Source: Eubacteriales bacterium
Lineage (GTDB): Bacteria; Bacillota; Clostridia; Oscillospirales; CAG-272
Direction: 5' to 3'
NCBI GenBank assembly: GCA_045593725.1
Contig: JAZNXE010000011.1
Coordinates: forward strand, 1 to 60,464
DNA: 60,464 bases
The notes below the pieces were generated by a model. That model searched no databases, was not told the DNA's origin, and saw only the letters and a program-made list of their open reading frames with translations. How positions within the stretch are numbered: the first letter of the stretch is position 1; the number at the start of each line of letters is the position of its first letter. Made by a program: the position numbers and the translations under genes. Positions 669 through 60,464 of this stretch are shown one piece after another.

Positions 669-1937
669 ATGCCAAGTCTTTATTTGCCGTATGTAAATAT
701 TGCGCTCGACTCGTTTGCGCTGCTTATTACGCTTATCATTCTTGCCACGTTTGTGGGCGAATTTTCAAATAAGAACATAGGTTCAAAGCACTTTTTAATT
801 TTTCAGGTTTCGATTGCAATAGCTTTGGTTGCCGACATTATCGGTTGGCTTGGTGAAGGACACCCCTCCTTGTCGGTGATGACTTTAACCGCAAACACCG
901 TTATGGCGTGCGCTTGTCGCGTAGCGATCATCGGTTTTATGGGATATTTGATTGCAAGTCTTTATGCCAATAGCCGCGCAGCTGTTTGTATTTTGACGAT
1001 ATTCCGTGTTTTGTGCGGACTTTCTGTTCTGTTTTGTATCGGCAACGCGTTTTTCGGTTATGCATTCTACGTCAATGAGCAAGGTCACCACGTGCATAGT
1101 GAAAATAGCGCGCTGGGAGTGATATATCTGATGTATCCGATCCTTGCGGTGTTCACTATTATTCTAATGACATTCTTCGCAAAAAGCTCCGCAAAGATCA
1201 ATCGTTTTGCATTCTTCATTTACACGCTCTTTCCCGTTGCGGGAGTTATCATAGACTATACGTTTCACGGTCTGTCTCTGACCTGCGTAGGCTTTACGAT
1301 CAGTATTTTGGTAATTTATATGAGCATTTATCTGACACGAAAGAAAGAGCTTGAAGCGCAACGAAATGCTTTGATGCTCTCGCAAATCAACCCTCATTTT
1401 GTATATAATACGCTTTCCACGATCGCCTCTATGTGCGACGTCTCCCCCAAGCAGGCAAAATATCTCACCATCGACTTTTCGCAATATCTGCGCAGGAACA
1501 TTAACGCTCTGACAAGCGAAGCGTTGATTCCTTTCACGCAAGAGATGGAGCACGTGGAGTATTATCTGAAAATCGAGAAGGCAAGATTCGGGGAACGCAT
1601 CAACGTTATTTATTCGATTCAACGTAAGGATTTCAGCGTTCCTCCTCTGACGGTTCAGCCGCTGGTCGAAAACGCGATAAAGCACGGAATTACGAAGAAA
1701 GCGAGCGGTGGAACGATCAAGCTCTCTACGTTTGAAGAAGATAACAATTACGTCGTTGAAATTATTGATGACGGCATGGGCTTTGATACGGAAAACATGG
1801 AAGTGCACGTTGGACTTCAAAACGTGCGAAGCAGGATCGCGGCGATGTGCCGTGGGGAGTTGACCGTGAAAAGCACGGTTGGCGTAGGAACGAGAGTAAG
1901 GCTCGAAATACCGAAGAAGAAAGGAAAGCGGCGATGA
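669..1937 (+). CDS. Membrane sensor histidine kinase, LytS/YehU-type (His_kinase + HATPase_c)
   Basis: About 7 hydrophobic segments, then SQINPHFVYNTL (H-box), QPLVENAIKHG (N-box), DDGMGF and VGVGT (G-boxes). ATG at 669 follows AAGGAAAGGA. Confidence 0.92.
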   Translation: MPSLYLPYVNIALDSFALLITLIILATFVGEFSNKNIGSKHFLIFQVSIAIALVADIIGWLGEGHPSLSVMTLTANTVMACACRVAIIGFMGYLIASLYANSRAAVCILTIFRVLCGLSVLFCIGNAFFGYAFYVNEQGHHVHSENSALGVIYLMYPILAVFTIILMTFFAKSSAKINRFAFFIYTLFPVAGVIIDYTFHGLSLTCVGFTISILVIYMSIYLTRKKELEAQRNALMLSQINPHFVYNTLSTIASMCDVSPKQAKYLTIDFSQYLRRNINALTSEALIPFTQEMEHVEYYLKIEKARFGERINVIYSIQRKDFSVPPLTVQPLVENAIKHGITKKASGGTIKLSTFEEDNNYVVEIIDDGMGFDTENMEVHVGLQNVRSRIAAMCRGELTVKSTVGVGTRVRLEIPKKKGKRR

Positions 1938-2737
1938 ACATATTGGCAGTTGACGATGAATATTACGCCCTTGAGCTGATGAAGCATGCGCTTGAGGAGG
2001 TTGCGGCGGGAGCTACCGTGTATCTTTGCCGTGACGTAAAAAGCGCGTTGCAGACCGCAACAAAGACAAAAATAGACGTTGCCTTTCTCGATATACATAT
2101 GCCCGAGATGAACGGCGTTGAGCTCGCCCGCGAATTAAAGCTACTGAATCCAAAGGTAAATATCGTATTTGCCACGGGATTTTCGGAGTATATGAAGGAA
2201 GGAATCGACCTTCGTATGAGTGGATACATAATGAAACCCATTACACCCGAGGCGGTTAAGACCGAACTCGAAAATTTGCGAAATCCAATCGAGTGGAGTA
2301 GGGAAAAACGCATTAGAATCCTGACCTTCGGAAACTTTGACGTTTTCGTTGACGGCGAGCCGTTAAAATTTGAGAGAAAGCAGGCAAAAGAGATTCTGGC
2401 GTATCTGGTAGACAAAAAAGGAACGTCAGCAACCTACCCCGAGCTTGCGGCGATGCTTTGGGAGGACGAGGAATACGACAGAACAAAGCAAAAGAATCTT
2501 CAGGTCTATATCGCAAGCCTTGTCAAAACGCTACATTCGGTTGAAGTCAAAGACCTGATTTTGAAAAACAGACAAGGTATTCTCCTGAACACGAGAATCG
2601 TGGATTGCGATTACTACCGTTTTCTTGAAGGCGACACACGGGCAATCAATTCCTTTACAGGACAGTATATGAGCGCATATTCCTGGGCGGAATTTACCGT
2701 GGGGTATCTGGAAAACCAACTGCAAAAAATCAAATAA
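1934..2737 (+). CDS. Response regulator, REC domain + winged-helix (SARP-like) output
   Basis: MNILAVDDE...FLDIHMPEMNG...GYIMKP receiver; C-terminal TFGNFDVFVDG...KEILAYLVD...LWED; ATGA overlap with the kinase stop. Confidence 0.9.
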   Translation: MNILAVDDEYYALELMKHALEEVAAGATVYLCRDVKSALQTATKTKIDVAFLDIHMPEMNGVELARELKLLNPKVNIVFATGFSEYMKEGIDLRMSGYIMKPITPEAVKTELENLRNPIEWSREKRIRILTFGNFDVFVDGEPLKFERKQAKEILAYLVDKKGTSATYPELAAMLWEDEEYDRTKQKNLQVYIASLVKTLHSVEVKDLILKNRQGILLNTRIVDCDYYRFLEGDTRAINSFTGQYMSAYSWAEFTVGYLENQLQKIK

Positions 2738-2744
2738 ACAGATC

Positions 2745-2782
2745 GGCACTCGGGCTAAAAAGCTTGAGTGCCTGTTTTTTTG
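2745..2782 (+). terminator. Intrinsic terminator of the two-component operon
   Basis: GGCACTCGGGCT-AAAA-AGCTTGAGTGCC followed by a T run. Confidence 0.8.
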
Positions 2783-2797
2783 AAAAAATTTTCCTTT

Positions 2798-2830
2798 TGT
2801 AGTCACGGTGTAGTCATTGGGTGGTAAAAT
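2798..2830 (+). promoter_or_regulatory. Activator-dependent promoter: TGTAGTCA direct repeat (11-bp period) over the -35 region plus extended -10
   Basis: TGTAGTCA at 2798-2805 and 2809-2816; TGgTAAAAT at 2822-2830; no consensus -35. Confidence 0.55.
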
Positions 2831-2924
2831 GGTGCATACAAAGCTCAAACTGTCGAGTTTTGAGAAAAAGAGCGGTTAGGGAACGCTCGAAATTATTTAT
2901 TTTTCTGTAAAGGAGAAGCAAATC

Positions 2925-3545
2925 ATGAAAAAAAGAAGAACACTCATCATCTCCCTGTTGCTTGTTGCAGCACTTTGCCTTGGTATCGGTTATGCGGCGT
3001 TGGCTACAAGAACCTTGACACTTACAGGTAACGCAAGCTTTAACTCGTCAGCAACACATTTGAACGTAAACTTTATTGACAGACTCGATCCCGAGCTTCC
3101 TGAAGGAAACACAGATGCTCAGGCAACCGCATCCGTTGCGGGGCAGACCGCATCCTTCAACCTTAACGGCTTGGTTAAGGGCGAGAAAGCAACCTTTACC
3201 TACATCATACAGAACCAGCACAGCGCAGACGTTTCCGCAAAGCTCACCGACTGTGTTGAAAGCTATGACATTATCCTTGGTTCGGGAGCAGGTTCAATCG
3301 TAGAAGATGCAGAGGAAGCCGATTATGTAGCCATCTCTCATAAGGCATACAAGGCGACTAAGTCCGACGACGGCTATACAATAGACACTTCGGCTGAATG
3401 GAAAGAAACAAGTGACATTCTTGACTACGAAAACTACATGGCAATTATTGTGGAAGTAGAGCTTAAGTTTGAGCCGATCGATCTTGTTTCGATCAACAAC
3501 TACACTCTCACCATCCACTTCGACCCTGTATATCCCCAGAATTAA
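2925..3545 (+). CDS. Exported protein with SipW-class signal peptide (TasA/CalY/BsaA-like fibre subunit candidate)
   Basis: MKKRR + hydrophobic core + GIGYAAL followed by a beta-strand (TLTLTGNASF); directly upstream of a SipW-type peptidase; RBS AAGGAG. Confidence 0.7.
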   Translation: MKKRRTLIISLLLVAALCLGIGYAALATRTLTLTGNASFNSSATHLNVNFIDRLDPELPEGNTDAQATASVAGQTASFNLNGLVKGEKATFTYIIQNQHSADVSAKLTDCVESYDIILGSGAGSIVEDAEEADYVAISHKAYKATKSDDGYTIDTSAEWKETSDILDYENYMAIIVEVELKFEPIDLVSINNYTLTIHFDPVYPQN

Positions 3546-3599
3546 GCTTTAAAACATTTGCAATGATTTGATCATCGATGAGTGAAAGGAGGACCGCAA

Positions 3600-4727
3600 A
3601 TGACGAAGGATAAGAAAGTTCTTTATAGTATTTCTACGCTTGTATTTGCGGTCCTCCTTGCAGCACTCTTTGTTGATTTTACAAGCAGCAAGCTTTTGGC
3701 GGCAGGATTGCTTCTTCCATTGGCGATTCTTGTACGAGCAGTCGTGAAAAAAAGGAGCTCACTTTCGATAAACAAAAAAGAGGTTATTCTGCTTTGCACC
3801 ATTATCGGCACGCTGTACGTCGTGCTTTTGCAATTGTCGGGGCTGATATTCGGGTTTTACAAAAATCCCTATTTTGTATCCCCCATGCCCATTTTTACGG
3901 CAATTCTTCCACTTGCTGTTATCGTCATTGCAACAGAAGTTATCCGATCTACTCTTTTAGCGCAAAAAGATTCCTTTGCGAGCGTTTTGGCGTTTCTATC
4001 CTGCATACTTGCAGAGGTGCTTTCATTTTCCAACCTTTTGTCTATTATAAGCTTTAACTACTTTATGGATCTGGTTGGTATCACGCTTTTCCCCACGATT
4101 AGTGCAAACATTTACTACCATTACGCATCTCGCCGCTTCGGTATGATTCCCAATATTGTGTTCCGATTGATTACGACGTTGTATATTTACTTTTTACCGT
4201 CGGTCACGGCGATATCTGATGCGTTATTTGCTTTTATTAAAATCTTCTTACCGATCGTGATGCTTTCCTTGATTTCTTCTCTTTTTGAAAAGAAAAAGAA
4301 AAACGCAGTGCAAAAATTCAAAAAACTATCGGTTGTCGGCACCGTGTTCGTCGTCCTCGTAATGGTTGCGGGCATGATGCTCATTTCCTGTCAGTTCCGA
4401 TTCGGTGCGATCGTTATTGCAACGGAAAGTATGACGGGTGAGATTAATAAGGGCGATATGATCATCTACGAAAGGTATGATGATCAAGTCATCAAAGAAG
4501 GACAGGTTATCGTCTTTCAGAAAAATCAAAATAACATTGTTCACAGAGTTGTGCAAATCGAGTATATAGATGATGAGATTCGATACATCACCAAGGGAGA
4601 CGCCAACGCGGATATCGATATCGGATACATTACCGACAAGAATATCGTGGGGGTGACCGAGATGAAGGTCTCCTACATTGGATTTCCCACTCTATGGCTC
4701 AGAGAATTGCTTGAAGGCAGCAACTAA
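3600..4727 (+). CDS. sipW: Signal peptidase I, SipW/archaeal (S26B) type, with a long N-terminal multi-pass membrane domain
   Basis: VIATESM (Ser), KGD, IVHRV (His), YITKGDAN (Asp) motifs; about 250 aa hydrophobic N-terminus; RBS AAAGGAGG before ATG 3600. Confidence 0.82.
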   Translation: MTKDKKVLYSISTLVFAVLLAALFVDFTSSKLLAAGLLLPLAILVRAVVKKRSSLSINKKEVILLCTIIGTLYVVLLQLSGLIFGFYKNPYFVSPMPIFTAILPLAVIVIATEVIRSTLLAQKDSFASVLAFLSCILAEVLSFSNLLSIISFNYFMDLVGITLFPTISANIYYHYASRRFGMIPNIVFRLITTLYIYFLPSVTAISDALFAFIKIFLPIVMLSLISSLFEKKKKNAVQKFKKLSVVGTVFVVLVMVAGMMLISCQFRFGAIVIATESMTGEINKGDMIIYERYDDQVIKEGQVIVFQKNQNNIVHRVVQIEYIDDEIRYITKGDANADIDIGYITDKNIVGVTEMKVSYIGFPTLWLRELLEGSN

Positions 4728-4753
4728 ATTCAGAAGAAAGGAGGTTTACTGAA

Positions 4754-6424
4754 ATGTCGGAAAAAGAAAAGAAAAAGCGTGCGCTTTACCGAAAAAACCG
4801 TGAAAAATGGATCTTTACGCAAACGGTAGTGGCTGTCGTGGTTGCGGTGGCAATTCTGATATCCTCTATCGTTGCATATCAGCTTAACAAGACCTATTAC
4901 ATCGGTTACCGCGAGGGCGGTTCGATCGATTATAACGTCTTTTTGAAGGACAATGAGTTTTTCGAGGAAAATCATCTGGGAAAGGATCAATCTTACGTTG
5001 CTTCTCTGATCGATAAGATCATTGCGGATTACAGCTATGAGATCGATATGGATACCGATGACGTAAATTATAAATATTCATATTCTATTACGTCGCGCTT
5101 GGAGATCATAGATGATACGTCCAAGGTTGCGATATTTAATCCGGAGCAAGAATTGGTCAGCGTTCAGAACAAGTCACAAAGCAGCTCGAACCGATTGCAC
5201 ATCAATGAGATCGTCGTGATCAACTACGACGAGTACAATGATCTTGCAAACAAGTTCCTTGACACCTACGAGCTGACAAGCACCACAAGTAATATCGTGG
5301 TGACGCTGGAAGTAGATGTACTCAGTGATTGCAACGCATTTTCGGGAAGTGCCGTGGACACCTATACTTCCGAACTTCGTATTCCTCTTACGACCAAAAC
5401 GGTCAATATAAAAATGACATCTGCTGTTCCGGACGCAGAAGCAAAAATGATCGCTTGCACGAGAGGTGCGGGTGCAGAGGTGTTCATGACTACCGCTATT
5501 GTTCTGGGAGTGGTAGATATTCTTATGATCCTGCTTCTCGTAGCATTCATTTTCTTTACGAGAACACCCGATATTACCTATACTGCGCGCGTCAAGAAAA
5601 TACTGTCGCAGTATAAGTCCTATATCCAGAAGATCAACAATCTGTTTGAAACGCACGGCTACCAGATCCTTATGGTCAATACGTTTGATGAGATGCTGGA
5701 GATCCGAGATACGATTCAAGCACCTATCCTTATGTATGAAAATGAGGATAAAACCTGTGCGAAATTTATGATACCCACAGACAGTAAGCTTCTTTACGTA
5801 TACAAAATTGAGGTCGAGGGCTATACAGAACCCGAGATCGAGAAGAAAGAAGAACCGATTCCCACAACGATCGTGAAGCCCAATATCACGAATGTCGTTC
5901 GTCCCGTGGTAAAGGTGGTTGTAAACACACCGCCCGCTCCCGAGAAAGAACCCGAGCCCGAGCCCGAAATCGAAACGATTTTGGAGGAGCCCGAGGTGGA
6001 AGCGGACGAGTCGGTAGAGGTAATCGCCACGACAGAAGAGGTCGAGGAAACGGAAGAGCCGGATCCCGAGATCGAAGAGCTGATTGCGGCAATTCCCGAG
6101 GTCGAAGAGGTTGAGGAGATCGGAGTGGACGTGATCGACGTATGTTGGAAGGAACGTCCCGATAAAACCTATCGCTACGATCCCGATGGAAACGTGGTGG
6201 ATAACGGAGACATCGTTCTCGTTCCGACCAGGGACGTTCATAGCGACAAGAAGATCGTTCGCGAGGCAGAGGTCTCTCGCGGCAATTACAAGATGGATCC
6301 CGCAACGCTGGACCATCCCCTAAAGAAGATCATCGGTGTCGTTCGCCGCAAGGCGGAGCAGGTTTTCACCGCACTGATTACCTCCGAGGAGAAGGACTCC
6401 GAGGATAAAGACGAAACAAGATAA
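4754..6424 (+). CDS. DUF5305-like two-TM membrane protein with Glu/Pro-rich linker and small C-terminal beta domain
   Basis: TM, then IDYNVFLKDNEFFEE...YVASLIDKI extracellular domain recalled from SipW-cluster proteins, second TM, cytoplasmic FDEMLEIRDTIQAPILM, EPEPEPE linker. Confidence 0.6.
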   Translation: MSEKEKKKRALYRKNREKWIFTQTVVAVVVAVAILISSIVAYQLNKTYYIGYREGGSIDYNVFLKDNEFFEENHLGKDQSYVASLIDKIIADYSYEIDMDTDDVNYKYSYSITSRLEIIDDTSKVAIFNPEQELVSVQNKSQSSSNRLHINEIVVINYDEYNDLANKFLDTYELTSTTSNIVVTLEVDVLSDCNAFSGSAVDTYTSELRIPLTTKTVNIKMTSAVPDAEAKMIACTRGAGAEVFMTTAIVLGVVDILMILLLVAFIFFTRTPDITYTARVKKILSQYKSYIQKINNLFETHGYQILMVNTFDEMLEIRDTIQAPILMYENEDKTCAKFMIPTDSKLLYVYKIEVEGYTEPEIEKKEEPIPTTIVKPNITNVVRPVVKVVVNTPPAPEKEPEPEPEIETILEEPEVEADESVEVIATTEEVEETEEPDPEIEELIAAIPEVEEVEEIGVDVIDVCWKERPDKTYRYDPDGNVVDNGDIVLVPTRDVHSDKKIVREAEVSRGNYKMDPATLDHPLKKIIGVVRRKAEQVFTALITSEEKDSEDKDETR

Positions 6425-35993: not shown

Positions 35994-37121
35994 ATGACTT
36001 TTGAACACGATGATAGCTACCAGAGCGGCGTATGTATAAAGGTGGTTGGAGTAGGCGGAGGCGGTAACAATGCCGTTAACCGTATGATAGCTTCCAACGT
36101 AAGAGGTGTTGAATTTGTTTCTATCAATACCGACAGACAGGCACTTAAAAATTCGCTTGCTCCTAATCAGGTGGCAATCGGAGAGAAGATTACCAAGGGT
36201 TTTGGAGCAGGTGCCAATCCCTCCATTGGAACAAGGTCTGCCGAGGAGTCGCTTGAGGATATAAAGGCTGCTCTCGCAGGCGCCGATATGGTATTCGTTA
36301 CCGCGGGTATGGGCGGCGGAACGGGTACGGGTGCTGCTCCCGTTGTGGCTAAGATAGCTCACGATATGGATATACTTACAGTAGGTATCGTAACTAAGCC
36401 CTTCGCTTTCGAAGGAAAGAGAAGAATGGAACAGGCGCTGGCGGGAATTGAGGAGTTCAGTCAGTATGTTGATTCTCTCGTTGTTATTCCCAACGAAAGA
36501 CTTAAGCTGGTTACCGACAGCAGAATCACTCTCTTTAACGCATTCTCTGAGGCTGATGACATTCTCCGCAAGGGTGTACAGAGCATTTCCGAGCTTATCA
36601 ACGTAGAGCAGTTTATTAACCTTGACTTTGCGGACGTTACCTCTGTAATGGCTCATTCGGGTCTTGCTCACATGGGTATAGGAAGCGCTACGGGTAAGGA
36701 TAAGGCTCAGGAGGCTGCAAGTATGGCTATTGCCAGCCCCTTGCTGGAAACATCTATTAAGGGTGCTACGGGCGTTATCATAAGCTTCTCGGTTTCTCCC
36801 GATGTAGGTCTTGAGGACGTTGACCTTGCTGCTAATATGGTTACCAATGAATGCAATCCCGATGCTAACATCATATTCGGCGTTGGATTTGACGAAAACC
36901 TCGAGGACGAAATGAGAATAACCATTATAGCTACCGGCTTTACAAAGGAAACTAATGAAGCTCCTGCAAAAGAGGATTCAAAGCCTGTGGAAGAATCGGC
37001 TAAGACTGCAGCTATCGATCCTAAGGCAGAGAATGTAGAGGAGGCTGCTCCCATAAAGGTAGCTTCTCAAAAGAATTCTAACGCTCTTGACCTTGATGAC
37101 ATTCTTGGAGATTTGTTTTAA
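35994..37121 (+). CDS. ftsZ: Cell division GTPase FtsZ, copy 1
   Basis: [34 protein letters not shown]; C-terminus [11 protein letters not shown]. Confidence 0.96.
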
Positions 37122-37287: not shown

Positions 37288-38346
37288 ATGGGATTTGAAC
37301 AGTTTGACAATAATGAATATGGCGTAAACATAAAGGTTGTGGGAGTCGGCGGTGGCGGAAATAACGCTGTTAACCGAATGATTGCCTCCGAGGTTAAGGG
37401 TGTAGAGTTTATCGCCATAAATACCGATAAGCAGGCGCTGAAGAAATCGGTTGCGCCAAAGCAGCTTGCAATAGGAGAAAAGATTACTAACGGCTTTGGT
37501 GCCGGCTCTAATCCCGAGTTAGGAAAGAGAGCGGCGGACGAGGCGTACAACGATATAAAGAAGCTGCTTTCGGGCGCGGATATGGTGTTTGTTACCGCAG
37601 GAATGGGAGGCGGAACGGGTACGGGAGCTACTCCTATCGTTGCAAAGGCGGCAAGAGAGATGGATATACTTACCGTAGGTGTAGTTACAACTCCCTTTGG
37701 CTTCGAGGGCAAAAAGAGAATGCTTCAGGCAGAAGAAGGAATAAAGGAAATAAGCCAGTACGTTGACTCACTTGTTGTTATCCCCAACGAAAGACTGAAG
37801 CTGGTTGCGGATTCAAGAATTACTCTTGCTACTGCCTTTTCTGAGGCTGACGAGGTTCTTCGCAGGGGTGTTCAGAGTATTTCCGACCTTATAAACGTAC
37901 CGGGATTTATCAACATAGACTTTGCGGACGTCACCTCGGTTCTTGCTAACTCGGGTGTTGCATATATGGGTATGGGTAAGGCTACGGGTAAGGATAAGGC
38001 TCAGGAAGCGGCTATGATGGCTATATCCAGTCCCTTGCTTGAAACCTCTATAAAGGGCGCCAAGGGTGTTATCATAAGTATTTCCGCTTCTGCCGACGTA
38101 GGACTTGAGGACGTTGACCTGGCTTCTACTATGATAGCTAATGAGTGTAACTCGGACGCAAGTGTTATCTGGGGAGTTGCCTTTGACCCTGAGCTTGAGG
38201 ACGAAATGAGAATTACTATCATAGCGGCAGATTTTGAGGTTGAGGAAGAGGACGTTGAGGCTGCCATTATCGAAGCAAATTCCGAGATAAAGGAAGAGCC
38301 CGCCGCAAAGCCTGTGAACGACGATTTCTTTGACGGATTGTTTTAA
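37288..38346 (+). CDS. ftsZ: Cell division GTPase FtsZ, copy 2
   Basis: [37 protein letters not shown]; C-terminus NDDFFDGLF. Confidence 0.96.
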
Positions 38347-53056: not shown

Positions 53057-53565
53057 GTATCAGTATATGCCAAAATCACTCCTTTGGATAGAGAGTCAGC
53101 TTGTCTTCCTTCGGGCGGTAAACTTCGGGAAATATCTTTTTTGCGTCCCCATGTTCCTGTAATTTTAATTGATTGGTAAGGCAATTCACATTAAAATCGT
53201 GGGTGTGCCGTTGATATATTTGCGTGTGCGAGGTATTTTAGGGGCAATGAGATTCAAAGCTATGGATGAAAGACCGTAAATTGCAAGGGCTATCAATGGC
53301 TTTTCAGGCTCCTTAAGCTCGGTTGCCAGATCTGCGCCTGTTGAGCCGATCCCCACTTATTTACGTAGAAATGAATATTACGCTTTTCGAAATAGGGCGG
53401 CGGCTCTCCCAAACGACCGTTTCGGGATGTATAGCCTCCACCTCAAGCACGCGCCGTATCCGATGCTTTTGGTATGTTCTTCGGGGGAAACAAACAGAAT
53501 TTCGAGTTCCTTGTGATGCGTTTCTTTGTTGATCTTTAATTCCTTGTAATAATTTAAGAAAATCC

Positions 53566-53595
53566 TTGACAGTAGCCTTGGATATGTGATATAAT
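53566..53595 (+). promoter_or_regulatory. Sigma-A promoter of the terminal membrane operon
   Basis: TTGACA-18-TATAAT with TG extension. Confidence 0.75.
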
Positions 53596-53643
53596 ATGGC
53601 GTCTGTTATCACGTTGATTTTTACTGTGTTAAGGAGAATCCCG

Positions 53644-55161
53644 ATGTCGTTTTCGCTGCTTTCAATCGCTATTATCGCCGTTACCGCGGCAGTTATATAC
53701 AGAGAAGTCCGAAAGGGATACAGGCACGGGTTATCAAGGTCGCTTATCAGCTTGTCGATCTTGATCTTCTGTGCTGTATTTGCTTCTCTCGTTTCTGTTT
53801 GGATAACCAAGCCCATCGGGGCATTGGTAATCGAGATTTTGCGTAGTACGGGCGTGCTTAACTTGTTAAGCGGAACGCTGGCACTTTTTGTGGGCATTGT
53901 CAAAATGCTCGTAAATATCATAATTTCGCTGCTGCTCTTCCTGCCTACCTTCTACATATTGAGAGCACTCGTTACTTACCTTGTGAAAATAATAATAGCG
54001 GCAGTCACCGCAAAGTCAAACAAAGGTAGGTCCAAAGGAAGTGCGGTGTATTTGTCGGAGGATGCTCCTTTCTACGTCGTCAATGATAAAAAGCTCGGCG
54101 CGCTGGTTGGCGCGCTGTCAGGCTTTATTATAGCCGTTGTGGTATTTATGCCGCTTATGGGCTTGCTGAAGAGCGCGGACGATATCGCGGATACCCTGAA
54201 GGAGATGACCGATATTCCCGCGGTGGAAAACTCAAAGGGACTTGACATTCTTGACCGTTACGCTAACGACGCATCGGGAACTGTGCTTTACACCTGCGGC
54301 GGTGGAGTTATCTATGATATAACGACCCGTACGAATGCGTACGGATATACCTCCTGCCTTAACGATGAGATAAAGGCTATCAGAGAAACCAATCTTACGG
54401 AAACGGCGGTAGAGCTTTACGAGTCGGGCGCTATAACGCTTGAAAACTCCGAAATTATAGAAAAATTCCTTGATAAAGTAGACCGTTCGCTCTTCCTGAA
54501 ACTGGTTATGGCTGACGTACTTAAAAACGTTTCTTCGAGATGGCTTGAATATCAGCCTTATATGGGAATTGCAAGACCTAGCTTCAGCAGCTACAGCGAG
54601 ATAGATAACTTTTTCAATTCTGTTCTCTACGTTTGTACCTCCACGAGTATCGAAACCTATGATGCGGACATAAGAACTATCGTCGCACTGATAAGGATAT
54701 TTGAGGAGTATCCCATACTTAATACTCGCGACTATAAGAGCTTTATGACCGATTTTGTCGAGGAAAATGCTCTTCAGAGCATTGAAGCGGAGCTTCGAAA
54801 AAATCCGCATATGAATTCTGTTCACGTTGCGATAGACGATTTGATTATGAACATAATTGCCTCCGAGTTTGAACTGGAGAAATATTCGCTTAGCCAAAAA
54901 ACGAATTTATATAACGGTATTGCATCTGTTCTTAACGATGCAAGGGGACTTAGCGGTTACGTAAAGAGTACGGCTATAGCCAACGGAATATCCGAAAAGT
55001 TTGAGTCGTGCGGAGTATATGTGCCGTCAAATCTTGAAAACCGCATAGCAAACTTGCTGTCCTATAAGTTATCTGACAGTTCGGAATTAACGGGAACTGC
55101 AGTGGAAAGTATCTTCGAGGAATATATGAAGGAGAAGGACCAGGGCGAAGGCGATAAATAA
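53644..55161 (+). CDS. CvpA-like membrane protein with large C-terminal helical domain
   Basis: KGYRHGLSRSLISL and DKKLGALVGALSG resemble CvpA-family motifs; about 4 TMs; RBS AAGGAG before ATG 53644. Confidence 0.6.
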   Translation: MSFSLLSIAIIAVTAAVIYREVRKGYRHGLSRSLISLSILIFCAVFASLVSVWITKPIGALVIEILRSTGVLNLLSGTLALFVGIVKMLVNIIISLLLFLPTFYILRALVTYLVKIIIAAVTAKSNKGRSKGSAVYLSEDAPFYVVNDKKLGALVGALSGFIIAVVVFMPLMGLLKSADDIADTLKEMTDIPAVENSKGLDILDRYANDASGTVLYTCGGGVIYDITTRTNAYGYTSCLNDEIKAIRETNLTETAVELYESGAITLENSEIIEKFLDKVDRSLFLKLVMADVLKNVSSRWLEYQPYMGIARPSFSSYSEIDNFFNSVLYVCTSTSIETYDADIRTIVALIRIFEEYPILNTRDYKSFMTDFVEENALQSIEAELRKNPHMNSVHVAIDDLIMNIIASEFELEKYSLSQKTNLYNGIASVLNDARGLSGYVKSTAIANGISEKFESCGVYVPSNLENRIANLLSYKLSDSSELTGTAVESIFEEYMKEKDQGEGDK

Positions 55162-55192
55162 AGCGTATAAAAACAGACGAAGGAGAGAATCA

Positions 55193-55891
55193 ATGGAACA
55201 GATCATAACGTCGATCATTGTGGCATTTCTGATTATATTGGAAATAGTGCTGTATTTCATTTTGTCGGCAACCGTGCTTCCAAAAATCGTTAAGATAAAG
55301 TGCTCTGTTCGAAGCAGCACGGACAGAGGATTGAAAAAATACATATATCCTAGCGGACGTGCGATATCCTATGAGCCGCATCCCTCGGTGAGAAAATACA
55401 TTCAAAGATATATACTTTTTACCAACGACGGATACAAGTATATAAAGTGTAGATTGGATCGCGGAATTGACAAGCTTGTTTTTTCGGTAGTAATGTTTAA
55501 CAACGAGAACCGCGTGATAGACGTGCTTGAGCTTACCGCAACAAATAAAGGTGAAAACGAAACCCGCTCCGTGCTTCTTCATCAGGATACATCATACGTA
55601 TCTGTAGCTGTGGATTCTGTAAATGGGAATAAGATGTTCAACGAGGTTATAATGGAGTGCAGGCTTTGGAGGCTTTGGGTATATAGCCTTTCGATAGCCG
55701 CCCTGAATTTTCTTCAGCTGATCTTCACAAAGGACATGATAGCTCTTTACGACAAATGGTTCTTTAAGAGCGGAATAGCAAATTCATTTCGCGTAGAGAT
55801 GCTACTTTTTGCTTCCTTCGGCATAGCCGCCGTATCGGGCGCGATCGTTTTCCTCAAAGCCAGAGGAAAGAGAGTAAGGTGGAGAATATGA
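55193..55891 (+). CDS. Hypothetical membrane protein (TM, beta-rich domain, two TMs)
   Basis: RBS AAGGAG; hydrophobic N-terminus and two C-terminal hydrophobic segments. Confidence 0.75.
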   Translation: MEQIITSIIVAFLIILEIVLYFILSATVLPKIVKIKCSVRSSTDRGLKKYIYPSGRAISYEPHPSVRKYIQRYILFTNDGYKYIKCRLDRGIDKLVFSVVMFNNENRVIDVLELTATNKGENETRSVLLHQDTSYVSVAVDSVNGNKMFNEVIMECRLWRLWVYSLSIAALNFLQLIFTKDMIALYDKWFFKSGIANSFRVEMLLFASFGIAAVSGAIVFLKARGKRVRWRI

Positions 55892-56523
55892 AAAGCATAA
55901 ACGACAACCTTTTGGCAAAGGGTGTTTACGATCATTTTCAAGTCGGCGGATACTTCACGGTAAAGGAATACATTATTGTTAAGCAAGACGGCAAGCGTTG
56001 CTTACTTTTGCGATTTAAAAATGAGATGAAAACCAATGTAAACACCGTCGAATTCACTGTTAAACAGTTGGATTCCAAAAACAAACAGATACACAGCGCA
56101 ACGATAAAATATGACGGTCTGAATATCCGTTCAAGGGCGTATTACAGTGCCGAGCAGGGTATAGTGCTTGACGACGCGTGCGAGAATTTTATAGTACAGA
56201 TGAGATACGTCATAAGCGATAAGGTCAAATACGTCTTCAAAAAAGGACTTGTAACGGCTCATTATGACGCGAGAGGATACGTAGTTCCAAAGCCCTCGTT
56301 CAAGCGTGAGTGTAAGGTGTCACTCAAAAGCAGGAGCGCAAAGCTTGGCAGGGGATACGGCTGGGTAGCTCTCTTGTCGTTCGTCCTTCTCGTTATCGCC
56401 GTCGTTATACTGATATACCGCGGAAATAACAGCTATAAAAACAAAAATTATTCAGACTTGAACACGGTAACAGTTTCACAGCAATACTCAAACAGAAACG
56501 ATAAAAACCAAAGCAGGAGTTAA
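55879..56523 (+). CDS. Hypothetical protein, beta-rich domain with C-terminal TM anchor
   Basis: Overlaps upstream stop (alternative ATG 55888 gives ATGA coupling); TM WVALLSFVLLVIAVVILI. Confidence 0.75.
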   Translation: MENMKSINDNLLAKGVYDHFQVGGYFTVKEYIIVKQDGKRCLLLRFKNEMKTNVNTVEFTVKQLDSKNKQIHSATIKYDGLNIRSRAYYSAEQGIVLDDACENFIVQMRYVISDKVKYVFKKGLVTAHYDARGYVVPKPSFKRECKVSLKSRSAKLGRGYGWVALLSFVLLVIAVVILIYRGNNSYKNKNYSDLNTVTVSQQYSNRNDKNQSRS

Positions 56524-56525
56524 TC

Positions 56526-59500
56526 ATGCTGAAATACAGCAATAAGATAACTAAACTAACAGACAGCCAGAAGATACGTATCCTCAGCGGAGTGGGTAGC
56601 ATTTCGGGAAAGGATATGAAAAATCTCGGTATTCCTACGCTTGCCGTCGGCAATATGAAGAATTACGGCAGAAGCATATATCCTCATACGACCTCGATAT
56701 GTCATTCGTGGAACACGGGGCTTTGGAGTGACGTTGCGAAGGCTAAGGTGAAAATGATGGCAAATGAGGGCATCGGCTTTGCCATAGCCCCCGGTGCTAA
56801 GATCAAGCTTTCTCCCTACCGCAAGGAAACCACAGAAGATCCATACCTCGCGTCCCTTCTTTCGGGCGCTTATATGAAGGCGGCGACTGACGCGGGAATG
56901 AGAAGCGGAGCATCTGGATATTACCTTACAGAGGCAGATGTTCGGTGGCTTGACGCATCTCCAAACAATAGAATACTGAACGAATATTTTGCTATGCCGT
57001 ATGCGTACGCTTCCGAAATATCGTCATCGTCCTGTGTTGTCACAGACAACAGAACACCGAACTATGCGTATGCCGACAGTTGTGAGCAGATAAGGAGCTT
57101 TATATCGGGCAATACCGAGTTTTTCGTTTGCGAAAAGGCGACCGAAGATAGTACGGTAAAGCTTGTTTCAGAAGGTGTTATATGCCTTGAGGGCTCCGCA
57201 AACGCATTAAGTGCGGCGCTTACCAGATACAGAAAGCTGAAAAAGCTTATGGAAGAGGGAAGGGACGTTACTCTTTTACAGCTTGAAGAGGAAGTGAAAA
57301 ACGGAACGGCAATTTCCGACGAGGCTGTAGACGAGGCGCTCGATCGCGCCTTGGATTTCCTCTTTTCCTGCGCGGGAGAATTGAGAGTGCAGTCACTTAC
57401 CGAGGAAGATGAAAACGCGCTGGCGCTCAAAGCCACGCTTGAGTCCACCGTGCTTTTGAAAAATAAGGGCTCATTGCTTCCTTTGCCAAAGAGTAAGAGT
57501 ATATTTATCATAGACGCATACTCGCCGAGAGAGGATGAGAATACCTTTGTCGGAGAGTGCAAGAAATTTTTCGAGGCAAGGGGATATTCTGTAAGCGCGG
57601 AAAAGGTGCAGATTTTTGACGACACTGACAGTAAGCACAGAATAGACAGACTGGTGTCATCTGTAAGCAAAGGCGATGTGATTTTGCTGCTTCTCGGCGC
57701 TGGACACGGCGCGGAGCGTCAGATACATCTTTCCGAAAAACTTACACTGCCACCTAATCAGCTTTACCTTGCAAATAAATTTGAGAACACCGAACGAAAG
57801 GTAATCTCGGTCATTTTTTCCGAGCACGCCACAGATGTTGATTTTACCAGAAGCTTTGACAGCGTTATATACGCTCCGTTGCCCGTAAAATACAGCGCAC
57901 AGGCACTTGCCGATATCGTTTCGGGCAAATACAATCCCACAGGACGCCTTGCATACACCCTTTATGCGGGGAGCGAGATGTCATTAAAAAAAGGAGCTGC
58001 CTACATTCAGAATTACCGAATGAAAACAGGTCCGTTTATCGGGTACAGATATTACGATATGGCGGGCTTGAGGGTCGGATATCCCTTTGGACACGGACTT
58101 TCATATACCGAGTTTTTGTACTCGGATATATCCGTTGACGATGATACGGTATCGTTTACCGTAAAAAATTGCGGCAGAGAAATAGGAAGTGAGGTGGCGC
58201 AGATATACGTCGGCATGGACGGCTCTGCAGTGCTTCGTCCCAAGAAGGAGCTTTGCGGCTTTGTAAAAATAAGGCTAAAGCCCATGGAAGAGAAGCGTAT
58301 TTCTATAAGAATAAGACTTCCAAAGGTATTCTGTGATGGCGGAGCTTTGCTTGAAAAGGGAAAATACATCGTCTACGTGGGAGCTTCGGTGTCGGATATC
58401 AGACTGAGAAGCACCTATCTTGCAGGCGATGCTGTGCTTGAGAAAAACGAAGAGCGATTGTCAGACTATTTGCAATCACACTCAAATATTTTAAACGACA
58501 ATTACACGTTGGAGGCAAATTACGGCGTTATGAAAAAGGGAATTACAAATATAATTACGGGAGGAATTGCTCTCGTTCTGTCGATAGTATTGGCTGTCTT
58601 TAATATTACCACGCATCTGGGCTCACTTGTATTGGGTATTGTTTCGGGAGTGCTCGCACTCTGCGCTATAGTGCTGCTTATCGTGGAGATATTTCAGAGA
58701 AGCCGCGCTCACGCAGATGAGCGTGAGAGAATAAGGCAGGAAAACCAAGAACATTTTGCGGATGCGGAGCAGATCCCCGTTCTTTCCACCGATAAAATGT
58801 TTGAGGATCAGTTTGATACCGTCAAGGAAGAAAATACATACTTTGATCAGGTAGTTGAGTTCAACAGTAAGGTTGATTATTCCGAATATATAGACGACCA
58901 GTTCCGTATAAGCGACGCGGCATCCGAATTTAAGCGCTTTGCGTTTGAGCGCGGATATAAGCTTGATCGCGGAGTTGCTGAAAACCTCTTTGCGTCACTC
59001 AGCGTTTCGAAGATGTTGGTGCTTAACGGCACATCTGCCGATGACTTTAATTCTCTTGTGCTGTTGCTTTCCGAATATTTCGGATGCGCTGTCTGCCTTG
59101 ACAATTCTGCTGATCTCCACGAGAATGCCGAGAATGTCTTCCACGGCTACGATTCCGAGGGATACGGAGTAAAGAAGAATATATTTAAGGCACTCGAAAA
59201 TGCCGCAAGCATGCCTGATAAGGTACATATTTCGGCCATAGACGATATCACTGCGGACAACGCGGGTGATTGGATAGTACCTCTTATGAGATACCTGAGA
59301 TCCTACAAGAGAAGAAACGAGATCGTTATGCCCGACGAAACTGGAAAGAACGTAGGATACACTATTGGTAACAACCTCTGGATAATGATAAGACTTGCGG
59401 ACACTCAGACCGCGGACAGCCTGCCCGTAGATATTCTCAAGTGCGCGTCAGTCATAAACCTTTCCTTCGTCAAGTGCCAGGTAATGGACGATCAGATACC

Positions 59501-60008
59501 CTCTCACGGCTTTACCTCATACCAGATGGAACATATGAAGGGTCAGGTTGCGGGTAAATACGAGGTTTCCGAAGAAATATGGAAGAAGATAGACAAGATC
59601 GAGAAGTACGCCAAGGGATATTCGAATTATACCATCGGCAACAAGCTGTGGCTTGACGTAGAAAAGCATATGGAGATACTGCTTGCCTGTGGAGTTGAGG
59701 TTGATGAAGCTATCGATGCGGCTTTGGCTATAAGAGTGCTGCCATCCATAACAGCATCACTTAAGGATAAGCTGACCAAAGAGGATAAGACGGTCTTGCA
59801 GACGGTGGAATTTGTTTTCGGCGTTGACGCCAATATGCAGTATATAAAGGCGTATATCGACAGCCTTACGGTGAAGCAACCCATAATCGAGAGCGTTGAG
59901 CCCGAAGCTGTAGAAGAGGTTACCGAAGCGATAGCAGAAGAGCCCAAAGAGGGGCTTGCGGAAGATAGTGTAAGTGAGTCCTCGGACGAACAAAAAACAG
60001 AGCAATAA
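56526..60008 (+). CDS. Fusion: GH3 beta-glucosidase-like (N, C and Fn3 domains) + two TMs + degenerate McrB-like AAA+ domain
   Basis: LGIP, SWN, APG, TEDPYL, ESTVLLKN, NPTGRL, FIGYRYYD, YPFGHGLSYTEF, EVAQIY, RPKKELCGF.K, VGAS; TM hairpin about 58545-58695; C-terminal FASLSVSKMLVLNG, IDDI, IGNK, AIDAALAIRVLP. Confidence 0.8.
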   Translation: MLKYSNKITKLTDSQKIRILSGVGSISGKDMKNLGIPTLAVGNMKNYGRSIYPHTTSICHSWNTGLWSDVAKAKVKMMANEGIGFAIAPGAKIKLSPYRKETTEDPYLASLLSGAYMKAATDAGMRSGASGYYLTEADVRWLDASPNNRILNEYFAMPYAYASEISSSSCVVTDNRTPNYAYADSCEQIRSFISGNTEFFVCEKATEDSTVKLVSEGVICLEGSANALSAALTRYRKLKKLMEEGRDVTLLQLEEEVKNGTAISDEAVDEALDRALDFLFSCAGELRVQSLTEEDENALALKATLESTVLLKNKGSLLPLPKSKSIFIIDAYSPREDENTFVGECKKFFEARGYSVSAEKVQIFDDTDSKHRIDRLVSSVSKGDVILLLLGAGHGAERQIHLSEKLTLPPNQLYLANKFENTERKVISVIFSEHATDVDFTRSFDSVIYAPLPVKYSAQALADIVSGKYNPTGRLAYTLYAGSEMSLKKGAAYIQNYRMKTGPFIGYRYYDMAGLRVGYPFGHGLSYTEFLYSDISVDDDTVSFTVKNCGREIGSEVAQIYVGMDGSAVLRPKKELCGFVKIRLKPMEEKRISIRIRLPKVFCDGGALLEKGKYIVYVGASVSDIRLRSTYLAGDAVLEKNEERLSDYLQSHSNILNDNYTLEANYGVMKKGITNIITGGIALVLSIVLAVFNITTHLGSLVLGIVSGVLALCAIVLLIVEIFQRSRAHADERERIRQENQEHFADAEQIPVLSTDKMFEDQFDTVKEENTYFDQVVEFNSKVDYSEYIDDQFRISDAASEFKRFAFERGYKLDRGVAENLFASLSVSKMLVLNGTSADDFNSLVLLLSEYFGCAVCLDNSADLHENAENVFHGYDSEGYGVKKNIFKALENAASMPDKVHISAIDDITADNAGDWIVPLMRYLRSYKRRNEIVMPDETGKNVGYTIGNNLWIMIRLADTQTADSLPVDILKCASVINLSFVKCQVMDDQIPSHGFTSYQMEHMKGQVAGKYEVSEEIWKKIDKIEKYAKGYSNYTIGNKLWLDVEKHMEILLACGVEVDEAIDAALAIRVLPSITASLKDKLTKEDKTVLQTVEFVFGVDANMQYIKAYIDSLTVKQPIIESVEPEAVEEVTEAIAEEPKEGLAEDSVSESSDEQKTEQ

Positions 60009-60020
60009 GGAGCGCTTATT

Positions 60021-60464
60021 ATGAATTACGGTGTTTGTTCCGTATTTGCAAATTTACCAACTCTTTTAACGTCAAAGATCGCCATCATAGTTTACGTGGC
60101 GGTGATACTTGTTTCTATAATTGCTATTATGCTGATACTTTTAACAAAGGAGTCGGAGAAGAATAGCGGTGAAGTAAAAATAATCGGAAAGGTCAATGCT
60201 ACAGCCGTAGGTACGCCCGCTTGTGACGAGGATGTGGAAGAAGGCGACGCACAAAGGTTTTGTATGCTGAGCGAGATAGAGAGCAGGAAGGAAAGCTACT
60301 CGGGGAAGAGATACGATAAGGATATAACACTTGAGAGCTTTTGTAAGGATTTTCGCGATTACGCGGCAAGCAGACTGAAGCTCTACTACGATATAGCGGA
60401 TATACGTCGCTTTGTGGCGGGACTGGGACTTTCACACATAATCATATTACAGGGAATGTCGGGA
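60021..60464 (+). CDS. Membrane-anchored McrB-like AAA+ NTPase, truncated by the window edge (not in ORF track)
   Basis: Hand translation: N-terminal TM (IAIIVYVAVILVSIIAIMLILL), then FCKDFRDYAASRLKLYY...IRRFVAGLGLSHIIILQGMSG, the start of a Walker A; RBS AAGGAG. Confidence 0.72.
   Translation, partial: MNYGVCSVFANLPTLLTSKIAIIVYVAVILVSIIAIMLILLTKESEKNSGEVKIIGKVNATAVGTPACDEDVEEGDAQRFCMLSEIESRKESYSGKRYDKDITLESFCKDFRDYAASRLKLYYDIADIRRFVAGLGLSHIIILQGMSG

Follow-up and report, generated by a model that had tools for sequence, protein, structure and literature searches.

A candidate membrane-bound, nuclease-free relative of McrBC encoded next to giant surface proteins in gut Clostridia

The operon at the contig end

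The DNA analysed here, called the window in the following, is a stretch of 60,464 nucleotides from a genome of Eubacteriales bacterium (assembly GCA_045593725.1; 1.30 Mb, 42 contigs, 97.7% complete) and comprises the whole of contig JAZNXE010000011.1 (C11). Its last genes, five open reading frames (g1 to g5) on one strand between position 53566 and the contig end, appear to open an operon of about nine genes built around a membrane-bound GTPase module that derives from the restriction system McrBC and lacks its nuclease. Going by domain content and gene order, we give about an even chance to the reading that this module controls surface proteins through the membrane. The five genes are separated by 31, -13, 2 and 12 bases and all of their products contain hydrophobic segments, in agreement with an earlier note on this DNA, made from the letters alone, that described one promoter followed by five tightly packed genes for membrane proteins. 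As the window is the entire contig, the operon is truncated by the assembly and not by the choice of window. The features of this end of the contig are:

53018..53053, + strand: terminator-like hairpin of the preceding gene, a 15-pair stem followed by a T run; upstream boundary
53566..53595, + strand: promoter-like site TTGACA-18-TATAAT with TG ahead of the -10 box; 12 of 12 matches to the sigma-70 consensus, the top of 26 sites in the region
53645..55161 (open reading frame from 53596), + strand: g1, polytopic membrane protein with a weakly CvpA-like N-terminal part and a C-terminal soluble domain of about 330 amino acids (aa)
55193..55891, + strand: g2, transmembrane (TM) helix, cytoplasmic beta domain and two C-terminal TM helices
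55879..56523, + strand: g3, cytoplasmic immunoglobulin-like (Ig-like) beta sandwich (residues 11-129), TM helix 159-185 and short outside tail
56526..58460, + strand: N-terminal part of g4 (1160 aa; whole frame 56526-60008), a putative pseudoenzyme like glycoside hydrolase family 3 (GH3) with barrel, alpha/beta domain and Fn3-like domain; predicted cytoplasmic
58551..58685, + strand: two-helix membrane hairpin of g4, residues 676-720; both flanks basic in 6 of 6 orthologues
58836..60008, + strand: C-terminal part of g4, a putative inactivated McrB-like GTPase domain
60021..60464, + strand: g5, putative TM-anchored McrB-like GTPase, first 148 aa, open at the contig end within Walker A

The promoter-like site directly abuts the first ATG of g1 at 53596, and the true start is therefore more likely the ATG at 53645, a correction of 49 bases; this second ATG is preceded by AAGGAGA at 53632-53638.

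Live and dead GTPase domains

The truncated g5 consists of a single TM helix (about residues 19-41), an acidic linker and the first part of an AAA+ domain, and ends with ILQGMSG, which is the start of the Walker A motif GMSGTGKTS of its relatives. This is how the earlier note had read the gene, and the TGKT and LDEMN motifs that it expected further downstream are indeed found in the relatives, one of which, the orthologue in locus L015, is 54% identical to g5 of the window. The live GTPase matches the Pfam family AAA_5 with an E value of 7e-7, above the curated cut-off. Among solved proteins its sequence matches are three McrB entries only, the best at E 0.0013, which bears out the McrB likeness claimed before. 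The McrB alignment covers Walker A, Walker B (LDEMNIA vs IDEINRA) and the signature motif (NNDD vs NTAD of E. coli McrB), whereby NNDD can be read as NxD followed by D or as NxxD. The motifs GK[ST], DE of Walker B and NNDD are kept in 119 of the 122 domains of this type in the window and all fetched loci, counting g5 and the second GTPase gene g7 described below, and the three domains that lack them (L093, L094, L110) occupy the position of g4. By their sequences, the AAA+ domains of g5 and g7 are thus McrB-type GTPases. A MoxR identity of the AAA_5 domain was also considered and dropped; no MoxR or RavA chain occurred among the sequence matches at E <= 1.

The C-terminal 390 or so residues of g4 align over the entire AAA+ domain of the downstream GTPases. 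In the window this domain has GTSADDFNS in place of Walker A and IDDIT in place of Walker B, and none of 39 such g4 domains has GK[ST], DE or NNDD, all 39 differing at the motif positions. Homology over the whole length combined with loss of all three motifs characterises the domain, as judged from sequence, as an inactivated member of the McrB family, that is, a dead GTPase subunit. The combination of active and inactive subunits proposed by the earlier note is thereby borne out.

Do the dead and live domains touch each other? The same note had suggested modelling the two AAA+ domains as a complex, and such a model, computed for the live domain (alignment of 50 rows) and the dead domain (31 rows) of L015 with alignments that we built ourselves, supports a contact. 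The median of the interface score ipSAE was 0.62 (runs 0.55-0.72), the best of three controls reaching 0.00, although this value may partly reflect likeness to, or memory of, the McrB hexamers that have already been solved. A score of 0.62 is reached by 116 of 157 solved complexes and by 2 of 215 mismatched pairs. Contact agreement among runs was at least 82% and the confidence measure pLDDT of the partners at least 82. Three of the six invariant columns of the dead domain, E248, N271 and E278, lie at the predicted interface together with the nearly invariant W251, whereas D255 does not. The model thus supports binding of the dead g4 domain to the live GTPase domain. The predicted interface is formed by the C-terminal helical part and need not be a ring contact, so that it is no proof of a shared ring.

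The McrC-like partner

The gene that follows g5 in relatives, g6, encodes a protein that is soluble by hydrophobicity. Its first 334 residues match DUF2357, the N-terminal domain of McrC, with 26.6 bits (cut-off 23.3), and the match recurs in 55 of 56 N-domains of the g6 family, the best at E 2.1e-14. An AlphaFold2 model of residues 1-350 (pLDDT 86.1) consists of a helical bundle, a long beta hairpin and a long helix from about residue 281. In a wide structural search McrC chains were among the longest alignments (6ut5_G, Z 7.7, root-mean-square deviation 6.6, 139 residues aligned; 6hz4_M, Z 6.8, root-mean-square deviation 5.5, 141 aligned), at Z values that are within the chance range for helical proteins, the top row being an unrelated STAT with Z 8.4. 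Foldseek gave no match to the model at E <= 0.001. The fold is thus consistent with McrC without being decisive, and it is the Pfam match on which the assignment depends. When solved proteins were searched by sequence with a profile of the N-domain of g6, no relative came up, only one chance row at E 0.64.

The C-terminal half of g6 matches coiled-coil families only, a coiled coil of about 230 residues taking the place of the McrC nuclease, and the invariant columns of the family, which include a YEN(R) motif, contain no D..(D/E)xK pattern of a PD-(D/E)xK nuclease. On this evidence from sequence, g6 is a McrC-like (DUF2357) protein without nuclease. The earlier note had asked whether an McrC or nuclease gene follows beyond the window; the McrC-like gene does follow in relatives, whereas the nuclease is missing from its product.

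A dead glycosidase fold on a dead GTPase

The earlier note described g4 as a GH3 domain, two TM helices and a degenerate AAA+ domain, and this architecture holds. The N-terminal part matches Glyco_hydro_3_C with E 1.4e-22 and an Fn3-like family with E 4e-11, and residues 50-633 align to the solved GH3 beta-glucosidase 7ms2 with E 2.7e-47. The Pfam model of the N-terminal GH3 domain does not match g4 of the window, and NCBIfam yields partial GH3 matches only, well under the cut-offs (146.9 vs 1300 bits). In a comparison of six close g4 orthologues with two true GH3 enzymes, the DGPHG and GRNF loops are missing through deletion, other residues stand in for the KH pair, and the nucleophile motif (S/T)DW reads CEK, CKN, CFH and the like, being kept in none of the six. 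Over 28 full-length GH3-like domains neither (S/T)DW nor KH is kept in any (0/28 each) and the acid/base glutamate is kept in one; GRNF is absent from all 28, owing to a four-residue deletion in 27 and a divergent sequence in the remaining one. No signal peptide is found on g4 and, as noted above, the hairpin has basic flanks on both sides in all six orthologues, so that by the positive-inside rule both the GH3 fold and the dead GTPase domain should lie in the cytoplasm. The GH3 part of g4 is, as far as sequence can tell, a cytoplasmic pseudoenzyme. If so, g4 offers a clean example of pseudoenzyme recruitment, in which a dead GH3 fold and a dead GTPase are joined in one protein.

Lost active site and cytoplasmic location together remove the idea that the domain senses glycans in the envelope. 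The earlier note's idea of an envelope machine for glycans, sensed or processed by way of this domain, draws on the clear GH3 homology over about 590 residues and on the Glyco_hydro_3_C and Fn3-like matches, and is very improbable given the loss of the catalytic and -1 subsite residues, the deleted DGPHG loop (6 of 6 close orthologues), the silent N-terminal GH3 model and the cytoplasmic placement without signal peptide.

Continuation of the operon in relatives

A scan for related loci with the single g4 protein found no relative; an alignment-based scan then succeeded. Full-length relatives of g4 occur in 9 of 24 genomes of the same genus that were searched and in none of 16 genomes chosen from the order's other families. 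On the long contigs of L014 and L015 the order is g1, g2, g3, g4, g5, g6, g7, g8, g9, which verifies the claim that the operon runs past the end of the window. Here g5 is a TM-GTPase of 440 aa, g6 has 563-591 aa, g7 is a second TM-GTPase of 456-466 aa, g8 is a transglutaminase-core protein and g9 a surface protein of more than 1100 aa. Orthologues of g1 head the operon in L014, L015, L017, L018, L061, L066 and L116.

In the genome of the window g5 breaks off with the contig, and g6 was not found. The next part to be recognised is the transglutaminase protein, with its Cys and His motifs intact, inside whose gene the contig C34 (4977 bases) begins. From this contig and from the relatives we infer that the remainder of g5, g6 and g7 are present in this genome as well. 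Directly after the transglutaminase surface protein, C34 encodes a polytopic membrane protein of 547 aa (2444-4084, + strand) with an N-terminal CxxC motif resembling a zinc ribbon; its first 178 residues have no match in Pfam.

The reason for the break seems to be the operon itself. In L014 (10180-11505 and 13247-14617) and L015 (7467-8867 and 10676-11998) the two GTPase genes encode identical catalytic domains on different anchors. In 33 further loci with two copies the identity of the two domains is at least 97% in 17, 90-94% in 2, 80% in 1 and 54-68% in 13, the median identity of live GTPase domains between genomes being 65%. Such near-identical modules suggest, at the level of sequence, gene conversion and thus concerted evolution limited to the catalytic domain in many genomes. 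Since the twin genes carry near-identical catalytic modules, short-read assembly would break inside g5. The contigs of three relatives (L016, L017, L018) stop at the same point of g5, and many public contigs are pieces of 3-4 kb with g6 between partial GTPase copies.

A scan of species-representative genomes (one per species) with two conserved GTPase motifs gave at least 622 matches, of which at least 604 were confirmed. Gene order was counted in the best 70 of these confirmed loci, short contigs making up most of the loci without full order. These 70 are records of metagenome-assembled genomes from gut and rumen and are labelled Eubacteriales, Clostridia, Christensenellaceae, Pumilibacteraceae, Candidatus Scatosoma, Lachnospiraceae, Anaeroplasmataceae, Acholeplasmatales and Haloplasmataceae. 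The order GTPase, McrC-like protein, GTPase is present in 36 of the 70, and in 32 of these 36 proteins matching the g8/g9 surface-protein queries in BLAST come next. The fusion of GH3 and dead GTPase lies directly upstream in 28 of the 70, and in 7 more a dead domain without detectable GH3 part. The neighbourhood conservation that the earlier note proposed to check is therefore real, the genes co-occurring in many genomes. Among 301 genomes of the order, 24 have genes like g6; an even sample of 400 other genomes from across the phylum yielded one. A record of a Pumilibacter muris isolate (L117) also carries the GTPase.

In six loci (L088, L089, L093, L095, L109, L121), labelled Haloplasmataceae, Anaeroplasma, Anaeroplasmataceae and Acholeplasmatales, the operon has GTPases 57-64% identical to the query. 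These labels suggest wall-less organisms, and if the carriers are indeed wall-less the function of the operon cannot depend on peptidoglycan.

The giant proteins downstream of the GTPases have ordinary hydrophobic signal anchors at their N-termini. Transglut_core was found in 21 of 46 downstream proteins scanned, many of which also carry AgI_II_C2, MBG or YDG repeats. A shorter form of the operon in L050 consists of a GTPase, a McrC-like protein, a GTPase and a transglutaminase protein; downstream of it lies a gene (1092-5108, - strand) for a protein of 1338 aa with nine LRR_5 stretches and collagen triple-helix repeats.

Small membrane proteins and genomic neighbourhood

Many loci that bear the core have different upstream genes and lack g1-g3, the genes in front of g4, which are therefore accessory. 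In g1 several hydrophobic segments of the N-terminal part are followed by the soluble tail. The likeness to CvpA claimed for it finds a weak echo in Colicin_V/CvpA (PF02674) at E 0.0064, with 16.9 and 17.9 bits under a cut-off of 29.3. In the ESM Atlas g1 falls into unnamed Bacillota clusters only, one look-alike cluster having the CvpA family on 20% of its members. The protein g2 has one N-terminal and one or two C-terminal hydrophobic segments, and its domain may be related to that of g3, to which it bears a weak profile likeness (hhalign E 3.3e-4, probability 38%).

The AlphaFold2 model of g3 (pLDDT 85.9) is confident for the Ig-like sandwich and for the TM helix. It resembles generic Ig-like sandwiches only (cytoplasmic domain of a Kir channel, E 4.5e-3); Foldseek found nothing at E <= 0.001, and the ESM Atlas again unnamed Bacillota clusters only. 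By profile search the g3 family comprises 743 clusters at 50% identity, 527 of them at E <= 1e-10, and occurs in short forms of about 200 aa and in longer ones, most of 1400-2500 aa. In each of the 13 longer forms scanned (380-2513 aa) the module is followed by BspA-type LRR_5 repeats (leucine-rich repeats), as it is in the g3 genes of L016 and L077. On the strength of these long forms g3 would provide a class of surface proteins with their membrane anchor and cytoplasmic head; the window has the short form. In one family member, P0105 (465 aa), a BRCT domain stands at the C-terminus, together with the module and an LRR_5 repeat, which is odd for an extracytoplasmic tail and may come from a mis-joined gene call.

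Upstream of the operon lie housekeeping genes: the dcw cluster of cell-wall and division genes, a sigma factor, rubrerythrin, thioredoxin and its reductase, a CDF transporter and a TetR regulator. No mobile or defence-related gene was found among the upstream neighbours examined in the window. At the end of the dcw cluster two full-length FtsZ paralogues stand in tandem (35994-37121 and 37288-38346, + strand; Tubulin and FtsZ_C, E 4e-49 and 1e-50). A spacer of about 500 bases (53060-53560) without convincing open reading frame separates the upstream terminator from the operon promoter; Rfam gave no credible match to it, and Pfam none to the 56-aa reading frame at 53186-53356 on its minus strand.

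Possible functions of the operon

How could a GTPase module derived from a restriction enzyme act on surface proteins? Since there is no nucleoside triphosphate outside the cell, energy or movement would have to be transmitted from the inside. In the reading to which we give about an even chance, g5, g7 and the dead domain of g4 would assemble as a mixed ring at the inner face of the membrane, and the DUF2357 protein g6 would enter this ring and stimulate GTP hydrolysis as McrC does on McrB. Movements of the ring would then pass via the TM helices to the cell exterior. There they could govern how the surface proteins with transglutaminase cores or LRRs are assembled, cross-linked, processed or cleaved, or how they are retained. 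Docking or regulation in the cytoplasm may be the part played by the Ig-like domains and by the dead GH3 fold. The nearest working analogy for such control of the outside would be that of FtsEX over extracellular hydrolases.

A bolder version of this reading can be formulated. In it the operon would encode a GTP-driven transmitter of force or signals across the membrane, with a mixed ring of two live subunits and one dead one and g6 as a 'shaft'. This transmitter would gate or power the transglutaminase-catalysed cross-linking or cleavage of isopeptide bonds outside the cell, so that giant adhesin fibres would be built, locked or released, and a brake in the cytoplasm that senses metabolites would be supplied by the dead GH3 domain. 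We regard this version as tentative, clearly less probable than the general reading of control over surface proteins.

Several findings weigh against that general reading. Transglut_core was not detected in 25 of the 46 downstream proteins scanned, and the ordinary signal anchors of the giants mean that they need no special motor for export. In the genome of the window g6, g7 and the second half of g5 are unassembled among its contigs. The upstream genes g1-g3 are missing from many loci that have the core, as described above. The contact in the dead-live model need not belong to a ring and may owe part of its score to solved hexamers, and the structural comparisons of g6 with McrC stay within the chance range for helical proteins. 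Furthermore, the best family match of the GTPase domain is a defence-candidate model of PADLOC, PDC-M26A, with E 1.8e-46.

This match leads to the possibility that the operon is an anti-phage or conflict system, a membrane-bound descendant of type IV restriction in which an attack would be sensed by the surface proteins or by membrane parts and answered by the GTPase complex with an abortive response. Its arguments are the McrBC ancestry of the GTPases and of g6, the PADLOC match, the patchy spread of g6-like genes within the order and the phylum, the occurrence of the operon in records labelled Clostridia as well as in those labelled Anaeroplasmataceae or Acholeplasmatales, and the fast evolution of accessory parts, with 39 of 39 g4 C-domains differing at the motif positions. 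However, family scans detected no nuclease, HEPN or other recognisable effector in any operon protein. PADLOC models are matched by the GTPases only, g1-g4, g6 and g8 having none save for a weak coiled-coil match of g6 to ZorA. Moreover, the neighbours are housekeeping genes and not defence or mobile genes, and giant adhesin-like proteins take up most of the coding capacity. A defence role, also entertained by the earlier note, finds nothing in its favour beyond the PDC-M26A match and the McrBC ancestry in terms of what the proteins do, and we consider it unlikely.

To a similar degree improbable is a dedicated motor for export or insertion, in which the giants or their N-terminal anchors would be unfolded by the ring, or threaded by it into or across the membrane. 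Threading of polypeptides is common among AAA+ rings, giants of 600 to about 2500 aa do come after the GTPases, and the polytopic g1 could form a conduit. Against this, McrB-type rings hold McrC and not the substrate in their pore (6hz4, 6ut5), the surface proteins carry their ordinary N-terminal signal anchors, g1 is absent from many core-bearing loci, and family scans detected no channel-forming family among the operon proteins.

To return to control of surface proteins through the membrane, the core of the GTP-dependent restriction motor McrBC has been kept here, with its motifs and the partner domain, while every part that deals with nucleic acids is gone. If the coupling to the surface is true, gut bacteria, both Gram-positive and wall-less, would have a new means of putting cytoplasmic GTP to use at the cell surface, which would bear on adhesion and colonisation by poorly known gut Clostridia. 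Should even the bolder transmitter version prove true, the operon would stand for a new class of envelope machine in hundreds of species of gut Firmicutes.

Comparison with known systems

The operon shares with McrBC (6hz4, 6ut5, 6ut6) the AAA_5/McrB-type NTPase with Walker A, a DExN Walker B and an N..D signature, and the DUF2357 partner. It differs in lacking the DNA-binding N-domain and the PD-(D/E)xK nuclease, and in having membrane anchors and a surface-protein context. Its GTPase is far closer to PDC-M26A (E 1.8e-46), which we infer to be a CoCoNuT-type GTPase, than to canonical McrB (E 1e-3), and a partner with coiled coil is also common to both. In contrast to CoCoNuT/PDC-M26, however, the operon has no HEPN or other nuclease genes, its partner protein matches no PDC-M26 model, and the system is membrane-bound. 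With GH3 beta-glucosidases such as BglB (7ms2) g4 shares the three-domain GH3 fold, being homologous over residues 50-633, whereas its catalytic and substrate-binding residues are lost in the copies examined and a membrane hairpin with a dead GTPase domain is joined to the fold.

Two further systems couple a cytoplasmic NTPase to enzymes outside the membrane. MoxR-DUF58-transglutaminase operons of the TgpA type bring together the genes of a cytoplasmic NTPase and of a transglutaminase-like enzyme that is anchored in the membrane and lies outside the cytoplasm, and in FtsEX a cytoplasmic NTPase controls extracellular hydrolases through TM helices. Both are working analogies only: their NTPase families differ from those of the operon, and no DUF58/VWA or ABC components were seen in the operon proteins.

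The closest system in print is CoCoPALM, which is named in passing, with its analysis deferred to a later paper (Bell et al., 2024, eLife). According to this short description it comprises McrB-like GTPases of the NxD clade fused to an FtsB-like segment of TM helix and coiled coil, McrC homologues with coiled coils, and SipA-like signal peptidases (Bell et al., 2024). A literature search did not find the announced follow-up, the relevant hits being the eLife work and its preprint, and a search on McrB, transglutaminase and transmembrane found no paper describing such an operon. The core is thus already named in print, while the architecture of the operon is undescribed in the literature searched. 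Of the earlier note's suggestion that the machine is undescribed, the architecture survives; the pair of TM-anchored McrB and coiled-coil McrC, to go by the passing mention of 2024, does not.

Two-gene sister pairs from the same order (L052-L059), in which the GTPase has a TM helix and a coiled-coil segment, fit CoCoPALM as far as that mention describes it. They adjoin Peptidase_S26 genes in L053, L057 (twice) and L059. The eight GTPases of such signal-peptidase-type pairs form a clade of their own (support 0.985), while the monophyly of the operon-type GTPases is unresolved in the tree, which was rooted on the dead domains (support 0.577). Around the pairs of L056, L057 and L059 extend long clusters of genes on one strand, which also encode EAL or GGDEF-EAL proteins and several proteins of about 250 aa without assigned family; the EAL and GGDEF neighbours hint at control by cyclic di-GMP.

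Measured against the published outline of CoCoPALM, the operon shares a TM-anchored McrB-like GTPase, in which the membrane anchor replaces the DNA reader, and, in g6, a McrC homologue with coiled coil and no active nuclease. By the same outline, both occur in Bacillota and are linked to genes for cell-surface structures, and NNDD of the operon, if not read as NxxD, fits 'NxD followed by a second D'; on membership of the NxD clade the strong PDC-M26A match bears only indirectly. However, the coiled coil behind the TM helix of the GTPase, present in L052-L059, is deleted in the operon-type copies of L014, L015 and L050, and a Pfam scan gave no match of Peptidase_S26/SipA type in any operon protein. 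Moreover, the operon adds two live GTPases flanking the McrC-like gene, the fusion of dead GTPase and dead GH3, Ig-like anchor modules and the transglutaminase giants. Lacking the GTPase coiled coil and the signal peptidase and having these extra components, the operon is set apart as a variant of the CoCoPALM kind and not a plain member of it.

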